IMG/VR virus record: IMGVR_UViG_3300036770_004547
DNA length: 22,223 nt
Source: an uncultured virus (IMG/VR IMGVR_UViG_3300036770_004547)
Taxonomy: Duplodnaviria; Heunggongvirae; Uroviricota; Caudoviricetes
Reading direction: 5' to 3' (one strand)
In this document: positions 2,353-20,663 of the stretch, piece by piece
Layout of the letters: each line of letters opens with the position of its first letter
Numbering within the stretch: the first letter of the stretch is position 1
Program-made: the position numbers and the translations under genes
Notes under the pieces: model-generated
The model's input: the letters and a program-made list of their open reading frames with translations, nothing else
Told to the model about the DNA's origin: nothing
Database searches by the model: none

Positions 2353-2407
2353 AAAGCATGCAAAAGGTTTACAAAAAGACTAGCATCTAAACAGATTGAT
2401 TGTTGCA

Positions 2408-2896
2408 ATGAATTACGGATTGCGAAAAGGATTAGAGGACATTGCTTTTGAACTAAAAGGAATCAGGAATGTCCTTGCAACCATGTGGCATTCTCGTTAC
2501 AACGATGGCGAGACCGACATGATCAATCCAGAGGTCTACGCTGATGAGTACATCTCAACAGAAGAGTGCGCCAAGCGACTAGGCGTATCTGATCAGACGA
2601 TCAGAAATTGGATTCTTTCAGGAAAGAAAAGGCCAGAAAGTGGCTGGATCTATGGGATTCACTACATCAATATCAGTCCTGTCGGTGGAAACAAACAGAT
2701 TATTCGTATTCCGTGGAACCATTTGATCCAGAGTTTTACCAGGGATACCAAGCCAAGCTACAGAAGTTTTGTTGAAAGAGACGTGGTTAAATACTCTTCA
2801 GAAATGAGGGACTCAAAAGACTCTTACATTCCAAACCCATCCGTTCCGAAGACTCCTGATTTTGATGACCCGGAGATTACTGAGGAGTTGCGATGA
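2408..2896 (+). CDS. Helix-turn-helix (excisionase/HTH_17-like) DNA-binding protein
   Basis: Reads on + (track label is wrong); likely ATG at 2408 (track uses TTG at 2396); YISTEECAKRLGVSDQTIRNWI is a typical winged-HTH signature. Confidence 0.75.
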   Translation: MNYGLRKGLEDIAFELKGIRNVLATMWHSRYNDGETDMINPEVYADEYISTEECAKRLGVSDQTIRNWILSGKKRPESGWIYGIHYINISPVGGNKQIIRIPWNHLIQSFTRDTKPSYRSFVERDVVKYSSEMRDSKDSYIPNPSVPKTPDFDDPEITEELR

Positions 2897-3734: not shown

Positions 3735-4327
3735 TGCCTGCTTTCGTTGGCAACAAAAAAGTTGAAGACTACGAATGGATCAGTAGTAAAGATATGATTG
3801 ATTCCGCTCATCTCGTTATGGGCGGCATTGATCTTGATCCTGCAAGTTCTGATAAAGCCAATGAGTTTGTCAATGCAAAGAAATATTACACACCTGTTGA
3901 TGACGGCTTAAATGAGATGGATTGGTTTGGAAACGTTTATGTGTTTCCACCACGCCACTCGTACTTCTGGCATCATGGCTCCCAACGGTGGAAGATGACC
4001 AGGGGATTGTCTCCTACTCTGACTTCCAGCTATGCACTTTGGTGGAAGACACTAAAAAGAAAATGGGTCAGCCGAGAGATTGAACAGGGCATTTACTTTG
4101 CCAATGCACCTGACATGTTCATGTACTGCCAGGATATTTTTGATCACCCTATATGCGTGTTCAGGACTAGACCAATATTGAATCAACACTTCTTTCATGA
4201 CGGAACGATAAAAAGTCGTAACACTTGCGTCTCATTTGCCGTATTTCTGCAACCGAGCAAGAATGTGTCGGACGCCACACAACACTTTGTTGACGTTTAT
4301 GGCGAAATGGGTCGCATTATTGTCTGA
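3734..4327 (+). CDS. Phage Dam-like DNA N6-adenine methyltransferase homologue with atypical catalytic motif
   Basis: Reads on +; EW near the N-terminus, GGIDLDPASS (SAM-binding motif), DDGL, and WFGNVYVFPPR in place of WxGxV(W/F)xNPPY. Confidence 0.7.
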   Translation: MPAFVGNKKVEDYEWISSKDMIDSAHLVMGGIDLDPASSDKANEFVNAKKYYTPVDDGLNEMDWFGNVYVFPPRHSYFWHHGSQRWKMTRGLSPTLTSSYALWWKTLKRKWVSREIEQGIYFANAPDMFMYCQDIFDHPICVFRTRPILNQHFFHDGTIKSRNTCVSFAVFLQPSKNVSDATQHFVDVYGEMGRIIV

Positions 4328-4360: not shown

Positions 4361-5989
4361 ATGAGCATCCTGTCAGACCGCGAAATCAAAGAACTTTCAA
4401 TCGAGAAGGGTATGATCCAGCCCTTCCAGGATCGACTCATCAATGAAAGCAACGGCCGTAAATTGTTGAGCTATGGTCTTAGTTCTTACGGGTATGACAT
4501 TCGCTTGTCGCCTAAACAATGCTTGATCTTTGGGCGTACCCAGTCTGGTGATTGTGATCCCAAGGATTTTGATCAGAATATCCTGCGTCCGGCTGAATTA
4601 CTGGAAGATGAAAAAGGCCAATACTTTCTCCTTCCTCCTTTTGGTTACTGCCTTGGTGTTGCAGAAGAATATTTAGATCTTCCCAAGGACGTTACCGTGG
4701 TTGCCGTTGGGAAAAGTACGTATGCCCGATCGGGAATTTTGGTAAATATTACGCCTGCGGAAGCCTGTATGGCGGACGATACTGATATTCTTGCAAAGAC
4801 AGGGTGGAAAAAACTCAAGGATGTGATTATTGGGGAAGAAGTTTTAACTCTTAATCCCATTACAAAAGAAGCTGAATACAAACCTGTTCAAAAAAAACAA
4901 GCACATTATTACAATGGAAAACTGCTTCATTTCCACGGAAAGTATGTAGATCAACTTGTAACGCCTGATCATAAAATGTGGGCGGCAAAACGACTTGTTC
5001 GTGTTGAAGCAGAAGGAAATGGCTGGGCTAACAAACAAAAAGGTGTTCGTCGCGCACAAGAAAGCCACTGGAATTTTTCATTAATGCGTGCAGACCAAGT
5101 TTATGGTGAATGGAATCATTATTTAAGTCGAGACATTAAATGGTCTGGAAAAAAGCCTGAGCCTGTAACTCAAATCGGAAAGCATGCTTTTTCAACTGAT
5201 TTTTGGCTTCGTTTTTTAGGTGCCTGGATGGGAGATGGTTCTGCTTATGACAATGGACGCGGAAATTATGTAATTAAATTAGCTGTTGTTACCAAAGTTG
5301 AAAAGCGTTTGTATTTCAGGTGGATCTTGGAAAATCTTGGCGTCAATTTCCATGAGTCTGATTATGGCTTTTCTTTCCAATCTAAAGATGTCATGGAGTA
5401 TTTACTTCCCTACAAGTACGCTAAAAACAAACATCTGCCAAATGAAGTTAAGCAGCTTGATTCAGAAAGCTTAAAACTTATTATTGACGGAATGATGCAT
5501 TCAGACGGAAACATTGAAACGTCTACTTATGTCAGTGTGTCTGAAAAATTAATCGATGATTTTCAAGAGATCTGTTTAAAAGCAGGATATAACTGCACAA
5601 AGTGGTCGCAAGAAAAACCGATCATGACTGGGGTTCCTGTAAAAATGTTTAAAGCACGTTATTCAACTGCAAATGTAACTCCTTCAAAACTTACTCCCAA
5701 TAAGAATATGTCCAGCGTTGACTACACTGGCATGGTCTACGACATCACTGTTGAAAATCACATTTTCTATTCGAGACGAAATGGACGCGCTTCTTGGACT
5801 GGAAATTGCTGGGAAGGACATTTAACCCTGGAAATCAGTAATTGCACTGGTCTGTTTAATCGCATCTATGCCAACGAAGGGATCTGTCAGCTACTATTTT
5901 TCCGTGGCAAAGAATGCGAGACCGATTATCAAATGAGAAAAGGTAAATATCAAAATCAACCCAAAGAAGTGGTCTTTAGTCAGGTCTGA
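4361..5989 (+). CDS. dcd: dCTP deaminase precursor interrupted by an intein (spliced product 195 aa)
   Basis: Reads on +; MSILSDREI, SYGLSSYGYDIRL, GKSTYARSG, ITPAEA|...|CWEGHLTLEISN, IYANEGICQLLFF and KGKYQNQ are dCTP deaminase motifs. Confidence 0.93.
   Translation: MSILSDREIKELSIEKGMIQPFQDRLINESNGRKLLSYGLSSYGYDIRLSPKQCLIFGRTQSGDCDPKDFDQNILRPAELLEDEKGQYFLLPPFGYCLGVAEEYLDLPKDVTVVAVGKSTYARSGILVNITPAEACMADDTDILAKTGWKKLKDVIIGEEVLTLNPITKEAEYKPVQKKQAHYYNGKLLHFHGKYVDQLVTPDHKMWAAKRLVRVEAEGNGWANKQKGVRRAQESHWNFSLMRADQVYGEWNHYLSRDIKWSGKKPEPVTQIGKHAFSTDFWLRFLGAWMGDGSAYDNGRGNYVIKLAVVTKVEKRLYFRWILENLGVNFHESDYGFSFQSKDVMEYLLPYKYAKNKHLPNEVKQLDSESLKLIIDGMMHSDGNIETSTYVSVSEKLIDDFQEICLKAGYNCTKWSQEKPIMTGVPVKMFKARYSTANVTPSKLTPNKNMSSVDYTGMVYDITVENHIFYSRRNGRASWTGNCWEGHLTLEISNCTGLFNRIYANEGICQLLFFRGKECETDYQMRKGKYQNQPKEVVFSQV
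4766..5806 (+). mobile_element. Intein with LAGLIDADG homing endonuclease (347 aa, residues 136-482)
   Basis: Block A CMADDTDILAKTGWK; block B LVTPDHKMW; LAGLIDADG-like motifs FLGAWMGDG and IIDGMMHSDG; blocks F/G VYDITVENHIFYSRRNGRASWTGN followed by +1 Cys. Confidence 0.93.
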
Positions 5990-6777: not shown

Positions 6778-7067
6778 ATGAGTGCAAGGACGGTTTTTGT
6801 CCTATGCCTGCACCAAAGCTGGTTGTTGCCAAGCCAAAGGTTGACATGGTGAATCACCCACCCCACTATGTCAACGAGAAAAAGAAAATTGAAACAATCG
6901 ACAAGATCGAAGATGCAGTTCAGTTTGCACCTGATGCAGTTCTTGGCGGCCTCCAGTGGCAAGTAATTAAGTATATTGACAGGATGTGGGATAAAGAAGA
7001 TCCTAAGAAAGATGCGAAGAAAGCAATGTGGTATTTAAAACGTCTTATTCAAAAATTAGAAGATTGA
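6630..7067 (+). CDS. DUF3310/SaV-like phage protein
   Basis: DMVNHPPHY...IETID.IE...IKY..R...K...D.KKA.WYL.RLI signature; ATG 6630 has AGGAGG 6 nt upstream; alternative start ATG 6804. Confidence 0.8.
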   Translation: MRNDGLYSECGTGNGDGSITQTQSFSAGTGGTERGGERNVDETPWFNPVDECKDGFCPMPAPKLVVAKPKVDMVNHPPHYVNEKKKIETIDKIEDAVQFAPDAVLGGLQWQVIKYIDRMWDKEDPKKDAKKAMWYLKRLIQKLED

Positions 7068-7355
7068 ATACTCTCGGTCATCATCGTCATCATCTTCTTC
7101 GTCATCCCCCTGGCACATCATTGCTAGCTCAACTAGCTCAAGCTGGGTCGGGTGATCAAATTCCAATTCAATATTTTCGTCAGCAAGAAGGTCTTTGATT
7201 GCGGCCCACTCGATTAAGCGCCGCTGGTACAGATTCAAAAGAGCAGCATACAGTTGATCCCAGGTCATCTCTTGGGCTTCCAGCTCTGCTTTACGCATTG
7301 CAAATTGCAGTTGAAGCGGGAGTTCTAATTCGCGGGGACGAACTGCGTCTTCCAT
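7056..7355 (-). CDS. nblA: NblA-like phycobilisome degradation adaptor with acidic C-terminal extension
   Basis: LPLQLQFAMRKAELEAQEMTWDQLYAALLNLYQRRLIEWAAIKDLL follows the NblA pattern LSLEQQF..R......MS.EQ....L..LY.Q.......LL as recalled. Confidence 0.7.
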   Translation of the reverse strand: MEDAVRPRELELPLQLQFAMRKAELEAQEMTWDQLYAALLNLYQRRLIEWAAIKDLLADENIELEFDHPTQLELVELAMMCQGDDEEDDDDDDREYSIF

Positions 7356-11226: not shown

Positions 11227-11589
11227 TCAAACTGCCGGTTTTAACTCTTGTAATGGATAAGAAAAAATGTCAACAACTTCCTGTGACATCCAAGCTTTGA
11301 TTCTTTCCATCTTAACCTGAGTAAAGAATTCTTGTTGTTGATACCATTGTTCTACAGCAGTACTGCCTTTGTTACTATTGCAACGGCGGCAGGCAGGAAT
11401 CAAATTATTTCTATTGCTAGAACCGGACTTAAACCTTGGGACAATGTGGTCAAGACTTGTAGCAACGTCTTCACAATAAGCACATTTGTAATCCCAGAAC
11501 TCGTAAATAGATTCTCTAAATTTCTTTTTTGCTAACTTTGGAGTTAATTCGACCAGAAGAGCAAGGGGTGCGTGCTCGTCATGGAACAT
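11227..11589 (-). CDS. HNH endonuclease
   Basis: CAYC...DHIVP...G...NLIPACRRCNSNKG zinc-binding HNH signature. Confidence 0.9.
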   Translation of the reverse strand: MFHDEHAPLALLVELTPKLAKKKFRESIYEFWDYKCAYCEDVATSLDHIVPRFKSGSSNRNNLIPACRRCNSNKGSTAVEQWYQQQEFFTQVKMERIKAWMSQEVVDIFSYPLQELKPAV

Positions 11590-11660: not shown

Positions 11661-11690
11661 CCTTGACATGCCTTGTCATCAAGGTAGTGT
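11661..11690 (+). promoter_or_regulatory. Sigma70-type promoter (TTGACA-16-TAGTGT) overlapped by tandem and inverted repeats
   Basis: TTGACA 11663-11668; TAGTGT 11685-11690; CCTTGACATG/CCTTGTCATC tandem 10-mers; CCTTGA...TCAAGG inverted repeat. Confidence 0.6.
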
Positions 11691-11715: not shown

Positions 11716-11988
11716 ATGGCGGCCACAGCAGGTTGGGTTACAGCCAACAAAGCATGCGAGTCTCTGGGACTCGACAAGAAAACGCTCTTCAAAATGCGCG
11801 ACGATGGGACCCTTCGCCTGGGTCCCCATTACGCCGCATTTAAAGACACGTTTTCGCGTGACTCGTATCGTTGGAATCTTACTAGCGTGCGCAAGGAATT
11901 AAGGAAGAAAGGGATTCCTTTTGTTGATCCACTTTCTTTGGGAAGTACAACGACTTCCTCAACTGATATGCAAGTTGAAGGTCAGTGA
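11716..11988 (+). CDS. Excisionase-like HTH DNA-binding protein
   Basis: Likely ATG at 11716, downstream of the promoter; WVTANKACESLGLDKKTLFKMRDDG.L..GPHY...YRWN is a winged-HTH pattern. Confidence 0.7.
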   Translation: MAATAGWVTANKACESLGLDKKTLFKMRDDGTLRLGPHYAAFKDTFSRDSYRWNLTSVRKELRKKGIPFVDPLSLGSTTTSSTDMQVEGQ

Positions 11989-12319
11989 TGTTTAAAGAAA
12001 CTTTTTGAGTTTCAATTGCATTGCTAAGTTTACTTTTAATCTTATCAAAGCAGTCTTCAAGATTTGAAGGCTGCTTTTCTTTTAGTTGAAACAAGATAAT
12101 CCACTGTGGATGTAGTGGTTTGATTTTCTTTTTCTTTGTTGTAATTGAAATTGTGTTGTCTGAGTTCCAGGTAAAGCTTTTTAATTCTTTTGGGTGAACG
12201 CCATAGGTTGCTGACATTCCAAAGAGCCAGGCTGCAGCACCAAAACTTTTGATCCTAGATAGCTGAAAGTAATCGTCTACGATCGCCTGATCGGGCGGAG
12301 GGGGATGGATAGGTTTCAT
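11882..12319 (-). CDS. Truncated, catalytically degenerate tyrosine-recombinase-like protein (145 aa)
   Basis: WLFGMSATYGVHPKEL, PLHPQW and TDLQLAYQLR parallel the cyanobacterial integrase motifs GM.ATYGLRP.E, PL.PEW and YDLRHA.A.R. Confidence 0.55.
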   Translation of the reverse strand: MKPIHPPPPDQAIVDDYFQLSRIKSFGAAAWLFGMSATYGVHPKELKSFTWNSDNTISITTKKKKIKPLHPQWIILFQLKEKQPSNLEDCFDKIKSKLSNAIETQKVSLNITDLQLAYQLRKSLYFPKKVDQQKESLSSLIPCAR

Positions 12320-12390
12320 TGGTCTCTGGCGTGTAGGCCAACTAAACCTTAAACCTTACCAGGCCCAGGGACGCATGTAGGGGGAAATCT

Positions 12391-12414
12391 TATTGAGTCT
12401 TAATAGACTCAATA
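12391..12414. repeat. Perfect 10-bp inverted repeat
   Basis: TATTGAGTCT-TAAT-AGACTCAATA in the spacer between the SWIM gene stop and the integrase-like gene. Confidence 0.85.
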
Positions 12415-12424
12415 CAAGTATACA

Positions 12425-13951
12425 CTAATCCAACATTGTAAAGTTTTCTATCAATATTTTGTCTGTTGCAATGTTAAACAGCTTTTGAATTACGGGATAC
12501 AAAATTGGTGATTGCGCATTACGTGGTGGAACATCCATGACAGAAAGAGAACGCACTGTTTTAAAGTATTCTCTATCCTTTTGAATTTTAATTTCAGTTT
12601 GTTTTACAAGCCTTTGTTCCCATTCAACCATGCCTGTAATACCTACAGGAAAATCAGATGGTTCTGGCGGAAATAATTTGTCCCTGAATTTAAGTGCATA
12701 GATGTGTTTGCAATATCTCAACTCATCTAACAATGGAGTCCAGTTATCTGAAATCGAAAGAATAATGTCCTGAGGGATTGAGTTACCATCTGTTTCCAAG
12801 GAAAAAGTACTGTAATCGTCATAGCCTGGCATACCTTCTGCCGTGGAGCCAGGGATGGAGATGTTAGACGTGCTTCTTTTGTAGATCGCACCAAACTCTC
12901 TGTAGACACCAGGGTTGTCACGTGTTGCTTTTATATCAGTATTTGATGCATCGGTAACGGTGTAATCTAACTCAAATCCTTCAGGTGCGTATACATCCAA
13001 GCTGCGATTGACACCTGGTGCTGTCATTGCACTGTTGTTGACAACCCCATCTACTTGCGTAACTTCAAAACGACCAGGTTTAATAGCAGATACGTTTGTT
13101 CTTGGGAAAAACTTCTTGGTTGTATTTGCTCCTCCCATTACAAATGAATAATCTCTATGCGTAAAATCTTGGCAAGTGCAAGCATATCTCGATCCTGTAA
13201 TCAAGAATCTGCCAGGGGTAAAGCCAACAGGAGAAGGAGAAATAAATTGTTTATCTGGTGATACATAAACGGAACCTGATTTTTTGAATTTCAGTATACC
13301 AGTGTCTTGATTAATTGCAACAACAACAGCTTGAACGTAACCATATCTGGTTTGAGTATTGGGATTGATCGTATCACTTGTAATAATTGGCCCATCTTCA
13401 ACAAGAACACGATCTTCAAAAATTTCTGTATTGGCAGGTTTTAAGCCATTAGGTTGCCCTGGTACTGGAATATAAAATGGCGCTGGAAGTGGGTTGGCAG
13501 AGCTCCAAGTTCCAGTTAGTTTTACATACCAATAAAAAGAATCTTCTGTAACGCTTTCAACAGATAGTTTTTGAGTGCTAACCGGATCTGTTAATTGATC
13601 TGTGCGTACAGAACCTGCATAACGCCAAATGGCCCAATGCATCCCAAGCTCTTTGTTGCTTGTTGGGAAGCCAACAAATGCACCAGAAATTACAGTGTTT
13701 GCATTACCAGAACTTGCGCTATCTGGTGTTTCGTATCTGAACGAGAATGTATATTCATTACTGTATGTGTAGGCATTAGCAAGTTCATATCCTTTTCTCC
13801 ATCTTGACCAAGCTGATTCCCTATTGGCAGCGTAGATTGAATCTGGGACGCTGCCCTTAGAGAATTCTGTTGTGATTGGTTTAATGACGCCAGGGTTAAA
13901 TGGCTTTACTTCTTGGAAATTACCAAAGTTATTGCCACTTTTTTTGGCCAT
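12425..13951 (-). CDS. SWIM zinc-finger-containing protein (508 aa)
   Basis: RYACTCQDF (CxC at 13180-13172) and YCKHIYAL (CxH at 12712-12704) form the two halves of a SWIM motif. Confidence 0.7.
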   Translation of the reverse strand: MAKKSGNNFGNFQEVKPFNPGVIKPITTEFSKGSVPDSIYAANRESAWSRWRKGYELANAYTYSNEYTFSFRYETPDSASSGNANTVISGAFVGFPTSNKELGMHWAIWRYAGSVRTDQLTDPVSTQKLSVESVTEDSFYWYVKLTGTWSSANPLPAPFYIPVPGQPNGLKPANTEIFEDRVLVEDGPIITSDTINPNTQTRYGYVQAVVVAINQDTGILKFKKSGSVYVSPDKQFISPSPVGFTPGRFLITGSRYACTCQDFTHRDYSFVMGGANTTKKFFPRTNVSAIKPGRFEVTQVDGVVNNSAMTAPGVNRSLDVYAPEGFELDYTVTDASNTDIKATRDNPGVYREFGAIYKRSTSNISIPGSTAEGMPGYDDYSTFSLETDGNSIPQDIILSISDNWTPLLDELRYCKHIYALKFRDKLFPPEPSDFPVGITGMVEWEQRLVKQTEIKIQKDREYFKTVRSLSVMDVPPRNAQSPILYPVIQKLFNIATDKILIENFTMLD

Positions 13952-18622: not shown

Positions 18623-19417
18623 TCAGCTAACAACGCGACCCAGGAGGTAGCCATCAATATCTTCGTAGCCAGGGGCTTCATCTGGTTGGATGTAGCACAC
18701 TTCAACAACGAAGTAGCCAGTGCGGCCAGCAGCTTTATCTGCAGAAGAGATGTACCAACCTGCATCAATACCGCTGGTAACGGTGGAAGCAGTACGCGAG
18801 AACACTTTATAAGTGGCAGCGCTGGTCAGTTCCTTGTAGACGTTAGTGGCGGTGACACCAGCGGCGCCGGTAGCAGTCAGGAAAGGATTGGTGCTATAAG
18901 CAGCGGATCCACCAGCGAAGAAGATTTCGCCTTCTTGGCTACCGGAAACAGTGCTGGCGAGGTTGGCCTGAGCAACACCTTCACCAACGGCTGCGCTAGA
19001 AGCAAGGCCAGTAGCAAACGAGATCACGCGACCAGTGGTAGCATACACACCGGAAGCAACGCGGCCATCGCCCCAGCCGGAAGCAACGGAGATGGTAGCG
19101 CGATAAACGTAAGCAGGAAGGGTGCTGGAGCCACTGATCACCATGCCGGTGATGTCAGTACGGGTGTCATCGTTCCGGTAAGGGGAAGGAACAATAACGT
19201 TGCCCGACGAAACGGCACCATCGCCAGAAGCAGTGGTGACGGGCACATAGCCACGCTGTTGGAAATAACGATAGCCAGGAGTTGCCAACACCGAAGTGGG
19301 GCCGCCTTTCGAACCATCATTAGCACCGCTGTCATCGGTATCAATGTTTTTGTACCAACCGTTCAGCGGCTCTGCCCAGTTACCAGGGTAGATTTTTTTA
19401 GACGAGAGATAGGTCAT
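18623..19417 (-). CDS. Putative capsid decoration/minor structural protein (264 aa)
   Basis: Immediately downstream of the capsid gene; GGAG SD; highly expressed codon bias; A/G/S/T-rich. Confidence 0.7.
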   Translation of the reverse strand: MTYLSSKKIYPGNWAEPLNGWYKNIDTDDSGANDGSKGGPTSVLATPGYRYFQQRGYVPVTTASGDGAVSSGNVIVPSPYRNDDTRTDITGMVISGSSTLPAYVYRATISVASGWGDGRVASGVYATTGRVISFATGLASSAAVGEGVAQANLASTVSGSQEGEIFFAGGSAAYSTNPFLTATGAAGVTATNVYKELTSAATYKVFSRTASTVTSGIDAGWYISSADKAAGRTGYFVVEVCYIQPDEAPGYEDIDGYLLGRVVS

Positions 19418-19453
19418 TTATTTCTCCGTATGGTTTACTTATGTTTTTACTTA

Positions 19454-20617
19454 TCAGACGCTACCGTCATCGGAGACGAAGCTGTAAGCAGTGGTGATGA
19501 AGTCTTTGTTCAGGACTTCGAAACCAGCATACAGTTGCCAGATGAGGATGATGAAACGGCTGAAGTCGTCGTTGTTGTTGATCAGCACCTGAGCATTCGG
19601 GCCACCGATACCAACGCCAACGGCTTGAGGACCGAAGAAGAAACCTTGAGCAACTTCTTGGGCGCTGTACGAAGCAACGTCGGTGAAAGAAGCTTGAACA
19701 GTTTTGGAGGGGAAGTTGGTCGACTCGAAGAACTTCACACCTTCAAACTGAACACCAGTCGGCATAACGGGTTCACCAGCCAGGAAGTAAGCCTGACCAG
19801 CTTGGGGACCCATGTAGAAGCTGGCGTTGTTAGGCATCATGGGGTTACCCATGTACATGCCTTGACCAGGGTTGCCGCTGTAACGAGCGATCTCACGGAA
19901 GTCAGGATCACGACGCAGGTGCATCATGAAGGTGGGATCGCAAATGCAACGATACAGACCATCGGTGAAGGTCGGCACGTTACGCTTACGCATATCCTTG
20001 ACGACGGTCAGCAAGTCGGTACGAACCGAGAACTGCTGGATGTCGGCAGTGTATTGAGCAGCGGTGTAAGCAATTTGACCAGAAGAGTTTTTGGTCTTAC
20101 CACCAGGGAAGTAGTAACCACCTTGGCTGGTAGAAGCAGCACCATTGGCTTCAGCTTTGGCAAGTTCGTCAATGAAGACGCGGTCACGCCAACGGCGATA
20201 GTCGTCAAGCAGGGTCAAGCTGCCGATCGACTGGTGGAACATATTCAGGTTGCCGGTGTCCAGAAGCAGACGCTGGGCGGTAACCAGAGTTTCGCGAGCA
20301 ATCTTGAAGGTCGAAGGCTGAGTCGGATCGCCCGGGTCAGCAGGACCGGTGTATTCCTTAAGCACCACCAGGACTTTCTCCTTGGTGATGTTACGGCTGT
20401 TAGCAGTACCAATAGTCTGGTCAGCAATGCGCTCACGGCTGTCCTTAGTACCAGGGGTACCCCAGAACTTATAGCGGTCGAGCTGAACGGTTTGACCAGG
20501 TTGACGAGTGAAGTCGTGAACAACAACAGGCTCTACGGCCATTTCGCAGATGTACGCCGGGTGGGGGCGATACAGTTCTGCACCCAAAATCTTGGGGAAA
20601 TCGGTATCAAGAAACAC
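19454..20617 (-). CDS. Major capsid protein (N4-gp56-like, HK97 fold; 387 aa)
   Basis: GTG start with GGAGG SD; PGQTVQLDRY, VLKEY, CICDP, GVQFEGVKFFESTN, FFGPQAVG and DDFSR...W..YAGFEVLN motifs; strong codon bias; TGA TAA double stop. Confidence 0.85.
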   Translation of the reverse strand: MFLDTDFPKILGAELYRPHPAYICEMAVEPVVVHDFTRQPGQTVQLDRYKFWGTPGTKDSRERIADQTIGTANSRNITKEKVLVVLKEYTGPADPGDPTQPSTFKIARETLVTAQRLLLDTGNLNMFHQSIGSLTLLDDYRRWRDRVFIDELAKAEANGAASTSQGGYYFPGGKTKNSSGQIAYTAAQYTADIQQFSVRTDLLTVVKDMRKRNVPTFTDGLYRCICDPTFMMHLRRDPDFREIARYSGNPGQGMYMGNPMMPNNASFYMGPQAGQAYFLAGEPVMPTGVQFEGVKFFESTNFPSKTVQASFTDVASYSAQEVAQGFFFGPQAVGVGIGGPNAQVLINNNDDFSRFIILIWQLYAGFEVLNKDFITTAYSFVSDDGSV

Positions 20618-20663
20618 TTTAGTTTATCCTCCAGTACGCAGGACTTTGTCGGGTGAAAGATTC

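Follow-up and report, generated by a model that had tools for sequence, protein, structure and literature searches.

Dead tyrosine recombinases have been found as phage regulators in a single family of Bacillus phages, which keeps both DNA-binding domains. MrpR (YopR) of an SPbeta-like Bacillus phage is reported to have a tyrosine-recombinase fold, to have lost catalysis and to be a repressor (PMC10516654), and SroF is a dead recombinase which serves as a repressor and whose catalytic domain holds most of the DNA (10.1101/2025.11.27.690993); both are ~320-aa proteins that combine a core-binding with a catalytic domain, recognise repeated operators and are required for lysogeny. The protein described here, which we call the mini-integrase, appears to be an independent example in which nothing but the catalytic core is left (~141 aa). 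Derived from a tyrosine integrase, it keeps only the catalytic domain, has lost catalysis and is conserved, and its gene is dispensable. We found no description of the family in the literature searched (subscription papers and preprint supplements lay outside its scope).

The gene lies in a 22,223-nt stretch of DNA from an uncultured virus (IMG/VR IMGVR_UViG_3300036770_004547), called the window below. The window belongs to an S-EIV1-like cyanophage. Its major capsid protein shares 86% identity with the counterpart in Synechococcus phage S-EIV1, the sole match among 50,697 phage records, and the S-EIV1 record has the same gene order. A Lake Biwa study reports S-EIV1 relatives in lakes and the sea, and its passages on them do not mention the mini gene (10.1101/655167). 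The features of the locus, with promoters predicted from conservation, are as follows.

11227..11589, minus strand: HNH endonuclease gene, a conserved neighbour of the HTH/mini-integrase pair
11663..11690, plus strand: predicted promoter of sigma70 type for the HTH gene (TTGACA-16-TAGTGT), pointing away from the HNH gene (from conservation; a strict scan did not call it)
11716..11988, plus strand: Xis-like winged HTH gene, 90 aa with a folded core of ~65 aa, present with or without the mini gene (HTH_17, fold, homology to locus L233, described below)
11882..11988, unstranded: tail-to-tail overlap of 107 nt, where the C-terminal tail of each protein is poorly conserved (low pLDDT in both)
11882..12319, minus strand: mini-integrase, 145 aa, catalytic-domain core of a tyrosine integrase, basic with pI 9.6 (sequence, profile, fold)
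12047..12087, plus strand: intrinsic terminator for the HTH transcript, within the mini coding sequence at codons ~80-91, KEKQP...C (hairpin and U-tract scan)
12346..12351, minus strand: proximal -10-like hexamer TAAGGT, 43 nt after the dyad, predicted promoter of the mini gene
12395..12410, unstranded: dyad GAGTC-N6-GACTC, ~92 nt upstream of the mini ATG, also found upstream of the primase operon in relatives
12417..12422, minus strand: TATACT, a -10-like hexamer farther upstream that stops 6 nt short of the dyad, predicted promoter
12425..13951, minus strand: gene for a 508-aa protein that belongs to no known family and weakly matches the SWIM finger (Pfam E 0.31), a conserved upstream neighbour

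An earlier sequence-only reading had described the 145-aa frame as intact and of cyanobacterial-type integrase ancestry. The frame is indeed intact and contains both YGVHP and TDLQL, and its ancestry is borne out by phmmer, profile comparison and fold; Pfam, PHROGs and NCBIfam gave no integrase match. A full phmmer scan found 35 proteins, four of which have 360-390 aa (E 1.7e-4 to 7.2e-4) and weak PF00589 (Phage_integrase) matches, and the longer relatives include Nostoc proteins named integrase. When a profile of 106 mini-integrases (hand-chosen, with most near-copies and fragments left out) was compared with the four long proteins, they matched at 99.3% (E 6.9e-21), a result that is partly circular because the four had been found with the mini-integrase query.

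The fold evidence, which comes from an AF2 model (pLDDT 86.8), is independent of this circularity. In a search of 48,161 chains, the top 28 rows were all tyrosine recombinases, protelomerases or type IB topoisomerases (best row Z 9.4, rmsd 2.9, 121 aligned), and the next unrelated row scored Z 4.3. The modelled catalytic domain thus places the protein among the tyrosine recombinases, and the structural similarity whose absence would have told against the sequence-only reading was found. Foldseek returned nothing at E ≤ 0.001 for the same model (lambda Int ranked first, not significant), and ESM Atlas features fall in integrase-like clusters (0.95-0.96), which is a lead only.

Family members have 123-173 aa, and the arm- and core-binding domains are absent. 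No upstream half of a split integrase gene was seen at HTH-anchored loci, and we therefore rejected the idea that the mini gene is one half of a split gene. The protein shares the motifs PP.D..I, W..GM.A.YG..P, W...NTI, W...F.L and DL..AY..R with P-SS2 ACT65663, Nostoc 486-aa integrases and the integrase of L233. These intact cyanobacterial and cyanophage integrases, which we take to be XisA/XisC-like, have YGLRPHE and YDLRHA motifs; unlike them, the mini-integrase lacks the arm- and core-binding domains and the Arg/Arg/His/Tyr set.

Each element of that catalytic set was examined across the 106 members. The replacement of the catalytic Arg by His, as first read, is true of the window but particular to its clade, the position being Thr in 47 members, Lys in 32, His in 8, Ser in 6 and Arg in 4. 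The change from LRH to LQL was confirmed in the window, and the second Arg position is Leu in 75 members, Ile in 17, Gln in 8 and Arg in just 1. The region of the nucleophilic Tyr is missing as had been claimed: the His...Tyr segment occurs in 0/106 members, the motif GH..H...Y is found in none of the mini-integrases vs 59/68 intact-integrase ORFs, and the fold alignment with lambda Int stops at residue 323-325. Judged by these residues, the mini-integrase cannot recombine DNA by known chemistry and is not an active integrase.

Some active-site-like residues do persist, and one might imagine that K63, H70, R121, K122 and Y125 together form a rewired site for nicking or topoisomerase-like chemistry. 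K63 aligns with the catalytic Lys of KTD (in a gapped part of the alignment) and is Lys in 101 members and Arg in 5, i.e., basic in 106/106, and H70 and R121 are invariant. However, Y125 is Cys in 15 members and Phe in 2, which rules it out as a relocated nucleophile, and neither catalytic Arg position is conserved; with GH..H...Y also gone, we consider an enzymatic role very improbable.

The comparison with MrpR and SroF is closer in fold than in sequence. Against the MrpR/SroF entries (PDB 8A0A and 9RD5), the model aligns with SroF at Z 7.4 (rmsd 3.7, 123 aligned) and with MrpR at Z 6.5 (rmsd 3.8, 123 aligned), and the combination of a recombinase fold with lost catalysis is common to all three. 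Sequence identity to MrpR/SroF is 10-11%, and the protein is closer to the cyanobacterial integrases (~25-28% identity to the nearest intact ones). Because it has no core-binding domain, we do not count it as a member of the MrpR/SroF group.

The mini gene is widespread and under purifying selection. In IMG/VR, 315 of the 321 stretches that matched a pattern search encode a relative, and 1,567 candidates gave 133 mini-integrase clusters. Outside the overlap, dN/dS is 0.077 (22 pairs, dS 0.03-0.3) or 0.088 (41 pairs, dS 0.3-0.8), with pairs that are not independent of one another, and reaches 0.26 near saturation; the HTH and HNH genes give similar values. The ORF is 136-155 aa long in 87/88 loci. 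The neutral decay with frameshifts that would have undermined the sequence-only reading is therefore not what the homologues show.

It is also an accessory gene of S-EIV1-like cyanophages. A convergent HTH gene stands beside the mini gene in 80/80 of the IMG/VR loci kept, but the reverse does not hold: of the 80 best HTH loci out of 477, the mini gene is present in 47 and absent from 31, the other 2 are cut short, and 0 have an intact integrase. S-EIV1 keeps the HTH gene and has no mini gene anywhere in its genome, and the gene is absent from 5/5 other near-complete genomes tested (the same search detected 4/4 carriers). An obligate two-gene module is therefore not supported. Presence of the mini gene changes 9 times on the HTH+HNH tree (93 rows), with at least 6 changes forced by well-supported branches. 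The gene can also recombine internally: at locus L058, the first 60 aa are 93% identical to L101 and the next 60 aa 93% identical to L055. No cyanobacterial prophage with the mini gene was found in species-representative genomes, where the 4 matches were short contigs in non-cyanobacterial or unnamed MAGs; such contigs of the S-EIV1-like group (L208-L211) were probably binned there by contamination.

We read the HTH gene from ATG 11716 in place of an earlier start at 11668, since the conserved promoter lies at 11663-11690 and relatives begin at the equivalent ATG. HTH_17 matches are below cut-off in 21/24 HTH members. In the fold search RdfS and other excisionases came top at E 0.02-0.1, so the protein is an Xis-type winged HTH beside an integrase by E-values all above 0.001 and a model of pLDDT 74.6. 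It resembles RdfS, Pukovnik Xis and the P2 DNA-binding protein 4LHF, Xis/RDF winged-helix proteins with a second role in transcriptional regulation that are its top fold rows, also in its ancestral position beside an integrase; unlike them, it is kept in phages without any integrase match (S-EIV1), and its present job is therefore not excision of its own phage. No cognate active integrase for it was found in carrier genomes.

The HTH protein often ends in Ala-Ala (16/27 mini-less loci and 24/69 carriers, vs 7/584 background ORFs), a tail that presumably resembles ssrA tags. The HTH of L233 ends FALAA, and that of the window ends VEGQ, with no Ala-Ala tail. A partial parallel is the integration-dependent immunity of mycobacteriophage BPs, where a switch protein is reported to have a C-terminal ssrA-like tail (PMC4557955); here, however, there is no attP in the gene and no active integrase.

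The 107-nt overlap first reported is exact in the window but not typical. Over 88 loci it ranges from 35 to 110 nt, with 44 or 47 nt in 51 of them and a constant frame phase, and it occurs in 87/88 loci (60 distinct pairs), the exception having an internal stop.

Within the mini gene, on the opposite strand, lies the terminator of the HTH transcript. Its hairpin was found in 61/62 distinct sequences (one unscored) at -13.6 to -21.1 kcal/mol; compared with synonymous recodings, it has a mean z of -3.2 (below -2 in 54/61) and the gene has no other strong peak. Across 20 sequences, 97% of 240 cells are paired, 31 as G-U on the HTH strand, and 32 cells changed on both sides (0/500 shuffles); two other measures of the covariation test were not significant (62/500 and 264/500). 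A terminator directly after the HTH stop is present in 18/27 mini-less loci vs 8/69 carrier loci. The KEKQP...C motif is therefore shaped at least in part by the RNA, and it may be the antisense U-tract, not the function of the protein, that holds K80/K82 constant. An "invariant" protein motif can thus be the trace of a terminator on the other strand. The HTH transcript, with a predicted 3' end near 12085, should reach ~200 nt antisense into the mini gene, so the mutual antisense control proposed earlier has a real overlap at the sequence level but is bounded by this terminator.

The terminator raises the question of whether the ORF is a decaying pseudogene or is kept solely to carry terminator and antisense RNA. 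It does account for one conserved motif, 1/88 loci has an internal stop, and the 50% library contains several shorter or frameshifted-looking entries. However, the low dN/dS outside the overlap and the constant ORF length argue against a relic, as does the ordinary terminator that mini-less phages use directly after the HTH gene, and we regard this explanation as scarcely credible.

Upstream of the mini gene, the dyad (RAGTC-N6-GACTY) occurs in 40/51 distinct regions, preceded by TATACT, and a TAnnnT hexamer follows 43-47 nt downstream in 38 of those 40. It is unique in the window, differs between close alleles and was not seen among the mini-less loci listed. The same dyad with the same spacing precedes the primase operon in 5/7 genomes, 2 of them without the mini gene. 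From this layout, the mini gene, whose transcripts are predicted to start near 12340 and 12410, seems to share its regulation with the replication genes, and a protein other than the mini-integrase probably binds the dyad. A second HTH gene, at window positions 2396-2896 and with excisionase/MerR-like matches, is a candidate for that dyad-binding factor.

Several other readings of the upstream region were tried. Among the motifs examined, the dyad is the only candidate operator (no operator set like that of MrpR/SroF was found), but its role as the mini-integrase's own operator is weakened by its presence in non-carriers before the primase operon and by the lack of any genome-wide excess. It is not favoured as an RNA hairpin (mostly -3.6 to -6.5 kcal/mol; 5 A-C and 1 G-U, small numbers), and four further look-alikes are coding sequence. 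We take the upstream motif to resemble E. coli dif, but a dif/att reading was rejected: the part that is conserved varies in the manner of a -10 hexamer, and the left arm lacks conservation. No att-like site was recognised for the mini-integrase. At the HTH promoter, a dyad in the window is not conserved among relatives, and a TAA-n-TTAA element before the -35 also scores in 20/31 mini promoters.

This promoter layout bears on the suggestion that the protein is a late accessory factor of packaging or virion assembly, e.g., one that condenses DNA or binds its ends. The gene is on the strand of the capsid-to-lysozyme arm, its product is basic, its neighbourhood includes an HNH gene, and the HTH also resembles small-terminase DNA-binding domains (7lwr, 1j9i). 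The earlier description of the pair as inside a virion gene block is true only in a loose sense, with 7 kb to the major capsid gene, 4 kb to a lysozyme gene, and the HNH gene and the 508-aa protein as direct neighbours. A promoter of its own with a layout common to the primase operon speaks against a packaging role, as does absence from cultured S-EIV1 and the 5/5 other near-complete genomes, making it quite improbable.

What the slot may once have held is indicated by L233. Intact members of the integrase family occur in 140 viral stretches, and L233 alone of 80 examined loci has an intact integrase and a convergent HTH gene in the slot of the mini gene. Its order is 260-aa gene, 508-aa homologue, 74-aa gene, integrase, convergent HTH, HNH and 902-aa homologue. 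The 397-aa integrase has GLRPHE, KTD, YDLRH and GH..H...Y, the HTH is homologous to that of the window (97.6%, profile comparison), and the largest piece of the capsid protein is 77% identical to the window's. A convergent Xis-like gene also follows an intact integrase in L212, L224, L234, L265 and P-SS2.

Descent from an int/xis pair, as originally proposed, is supported by this intact pair, and the L233 cassette is likely the ancestral state. In a quick catalytic-domain tree with 29 sampled mini proteins, these form one group (SH-aLRT 100) beside L233, P0035 and P0036, a link with support of 16. L233 is a long outlying branch on the HTH+HNH tree, and follow-up searches found no more records like it. 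Truncation in place is therefore likely but not proven, as it depends on a single record and a weak tree link. Intact, truncated and deleted integrase states all persist in one slot of a widespread cyanophage group, a natural series for asking how a temperate phage integration cassette is recycled. Neither the window nor L233 has a tRNA. Upstream of the L233 integrase (3753-3995), three GGTC-type short repeats and an imperfect inverted repeat form a candidate attP. On the L233 contig (G008), the major capsid gene matches in three separated pieces at 78584-81105, which suggests introns or other insertions.

Intact relatives also matter for a proposal that the mini-integrase is a dominant-negative subunit or decoy, joining complexes of related intact integrases (host islands, prophages, satellites) and blocking excision during infection, since it has no nucleophile and no C-terminal oligomerisation helices. 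Possible targets are at hand in Nostoc genomes, cyanobacterial plasmids, P-SS2 and the 140 viral stretches, and the repeated gains or losses and within-gene recombination fit a host-dependent benefit. However, recombinase interfaces are usually cognate-specific, which counts against a protein with such low identity to the nearest intact integrases and a long stem on the tree, and there is no core-binding domain for loading on att sites. Nor does the mini gene track a second recombinase, which only 2/5 complete mini-bearing genomes have. We consider such interference unlikely. The second tyrosine recombinase is unrelated and sits amid tail-like genes in L028 (1174-2028, 284 aa), L027 (1477-2385, split into two ORFs) and L293.

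The explanation we tentatively favour, at a little less than even chances, is that the mini-integrase is a repurposed non-catalytic DNA-binding regulator, MrpR/SroF-like but of separate origin and without a core-binding domain. The lineage would have abandoned integration, the Xis-like HTH would have become a core regulator, and the integrase would have shrunk to a small basic domain that binds DNA and is probably expressed alongside the replication genes, from a promoter of its own. It could then tune transcription or DNA architecture at phage sites, perhaps with the HTH, whose transcript would end at the terminator built into the mini gene; with ~200 nt of antisense overlap, the two genes could come to be expressed reciprocally.

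This regulator reading is favoured by fold and profile, low dN/dS, conserved basic positions (62-64, 67, 119, 121-122) and a recognition-helix region (H87-103) that the model suggests is retained. The pI is above 8.5 in 105/106 members, and median net charge is +8 vs +4 in the matching stretch of intact integrases. The SroF/MrpR precedent, syntenic intact cassette, primase-like promoter layout and terminator also speak for it. Several points weaken it: we could assign no binding site to the protein; MrpR and SroF have retained a core-binding domain, and weak DNA binding is to be expected of a catalytic domain by itself; K80/K82 are possibly fixed by the U-tract; the ancestral state rests on one record and a weak tree link; and the gene is dispensable, so a conditional conflict gene fits equally well.

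A broader and rather doubtful version is that lytic cyanophages turned the whole int/xis cassette into a control circuit, with Xis as a short-lived core regulator and the integrase as a stand-alone catalytic-domain unit that binds DNA or blocks recombinases, wired by overlapping transcripts and an overprinted terminator. In its boldest form, host islands or satellites would be kept from excising during infection. A direct test system exists, as S-EIV1 is cultured and lacks the mini gene.

The neighbourhood has further features of its own. The 508-aa protein has CxC and CxH motifs ~150 residues apart, like a split SWIM zinc finger. The slot between its gene and the HTH gene often receives cargo (L170, L173, L175, L176, L183, L192, L208), labelled from motifs as a 183-aa HEXXH protein, glycosyltransferase-like, methyltransferase-like and 427-aa genes. 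Elsewhere in the window, an NblA-like phycobilisome degradation protein (7056-7355; E 0.007, below cut-off) adjoins the lysozyme gene, and a 656-aa open frame antisense to the capsid gene (18686-20656, plus strand), with no family match, is probably a shadow ORF. At 4361-5989, a 542-aa dCTP deaminase carries a long insertion, possibly an intein, that begins with weak matches to profiles of other phage enzymes.
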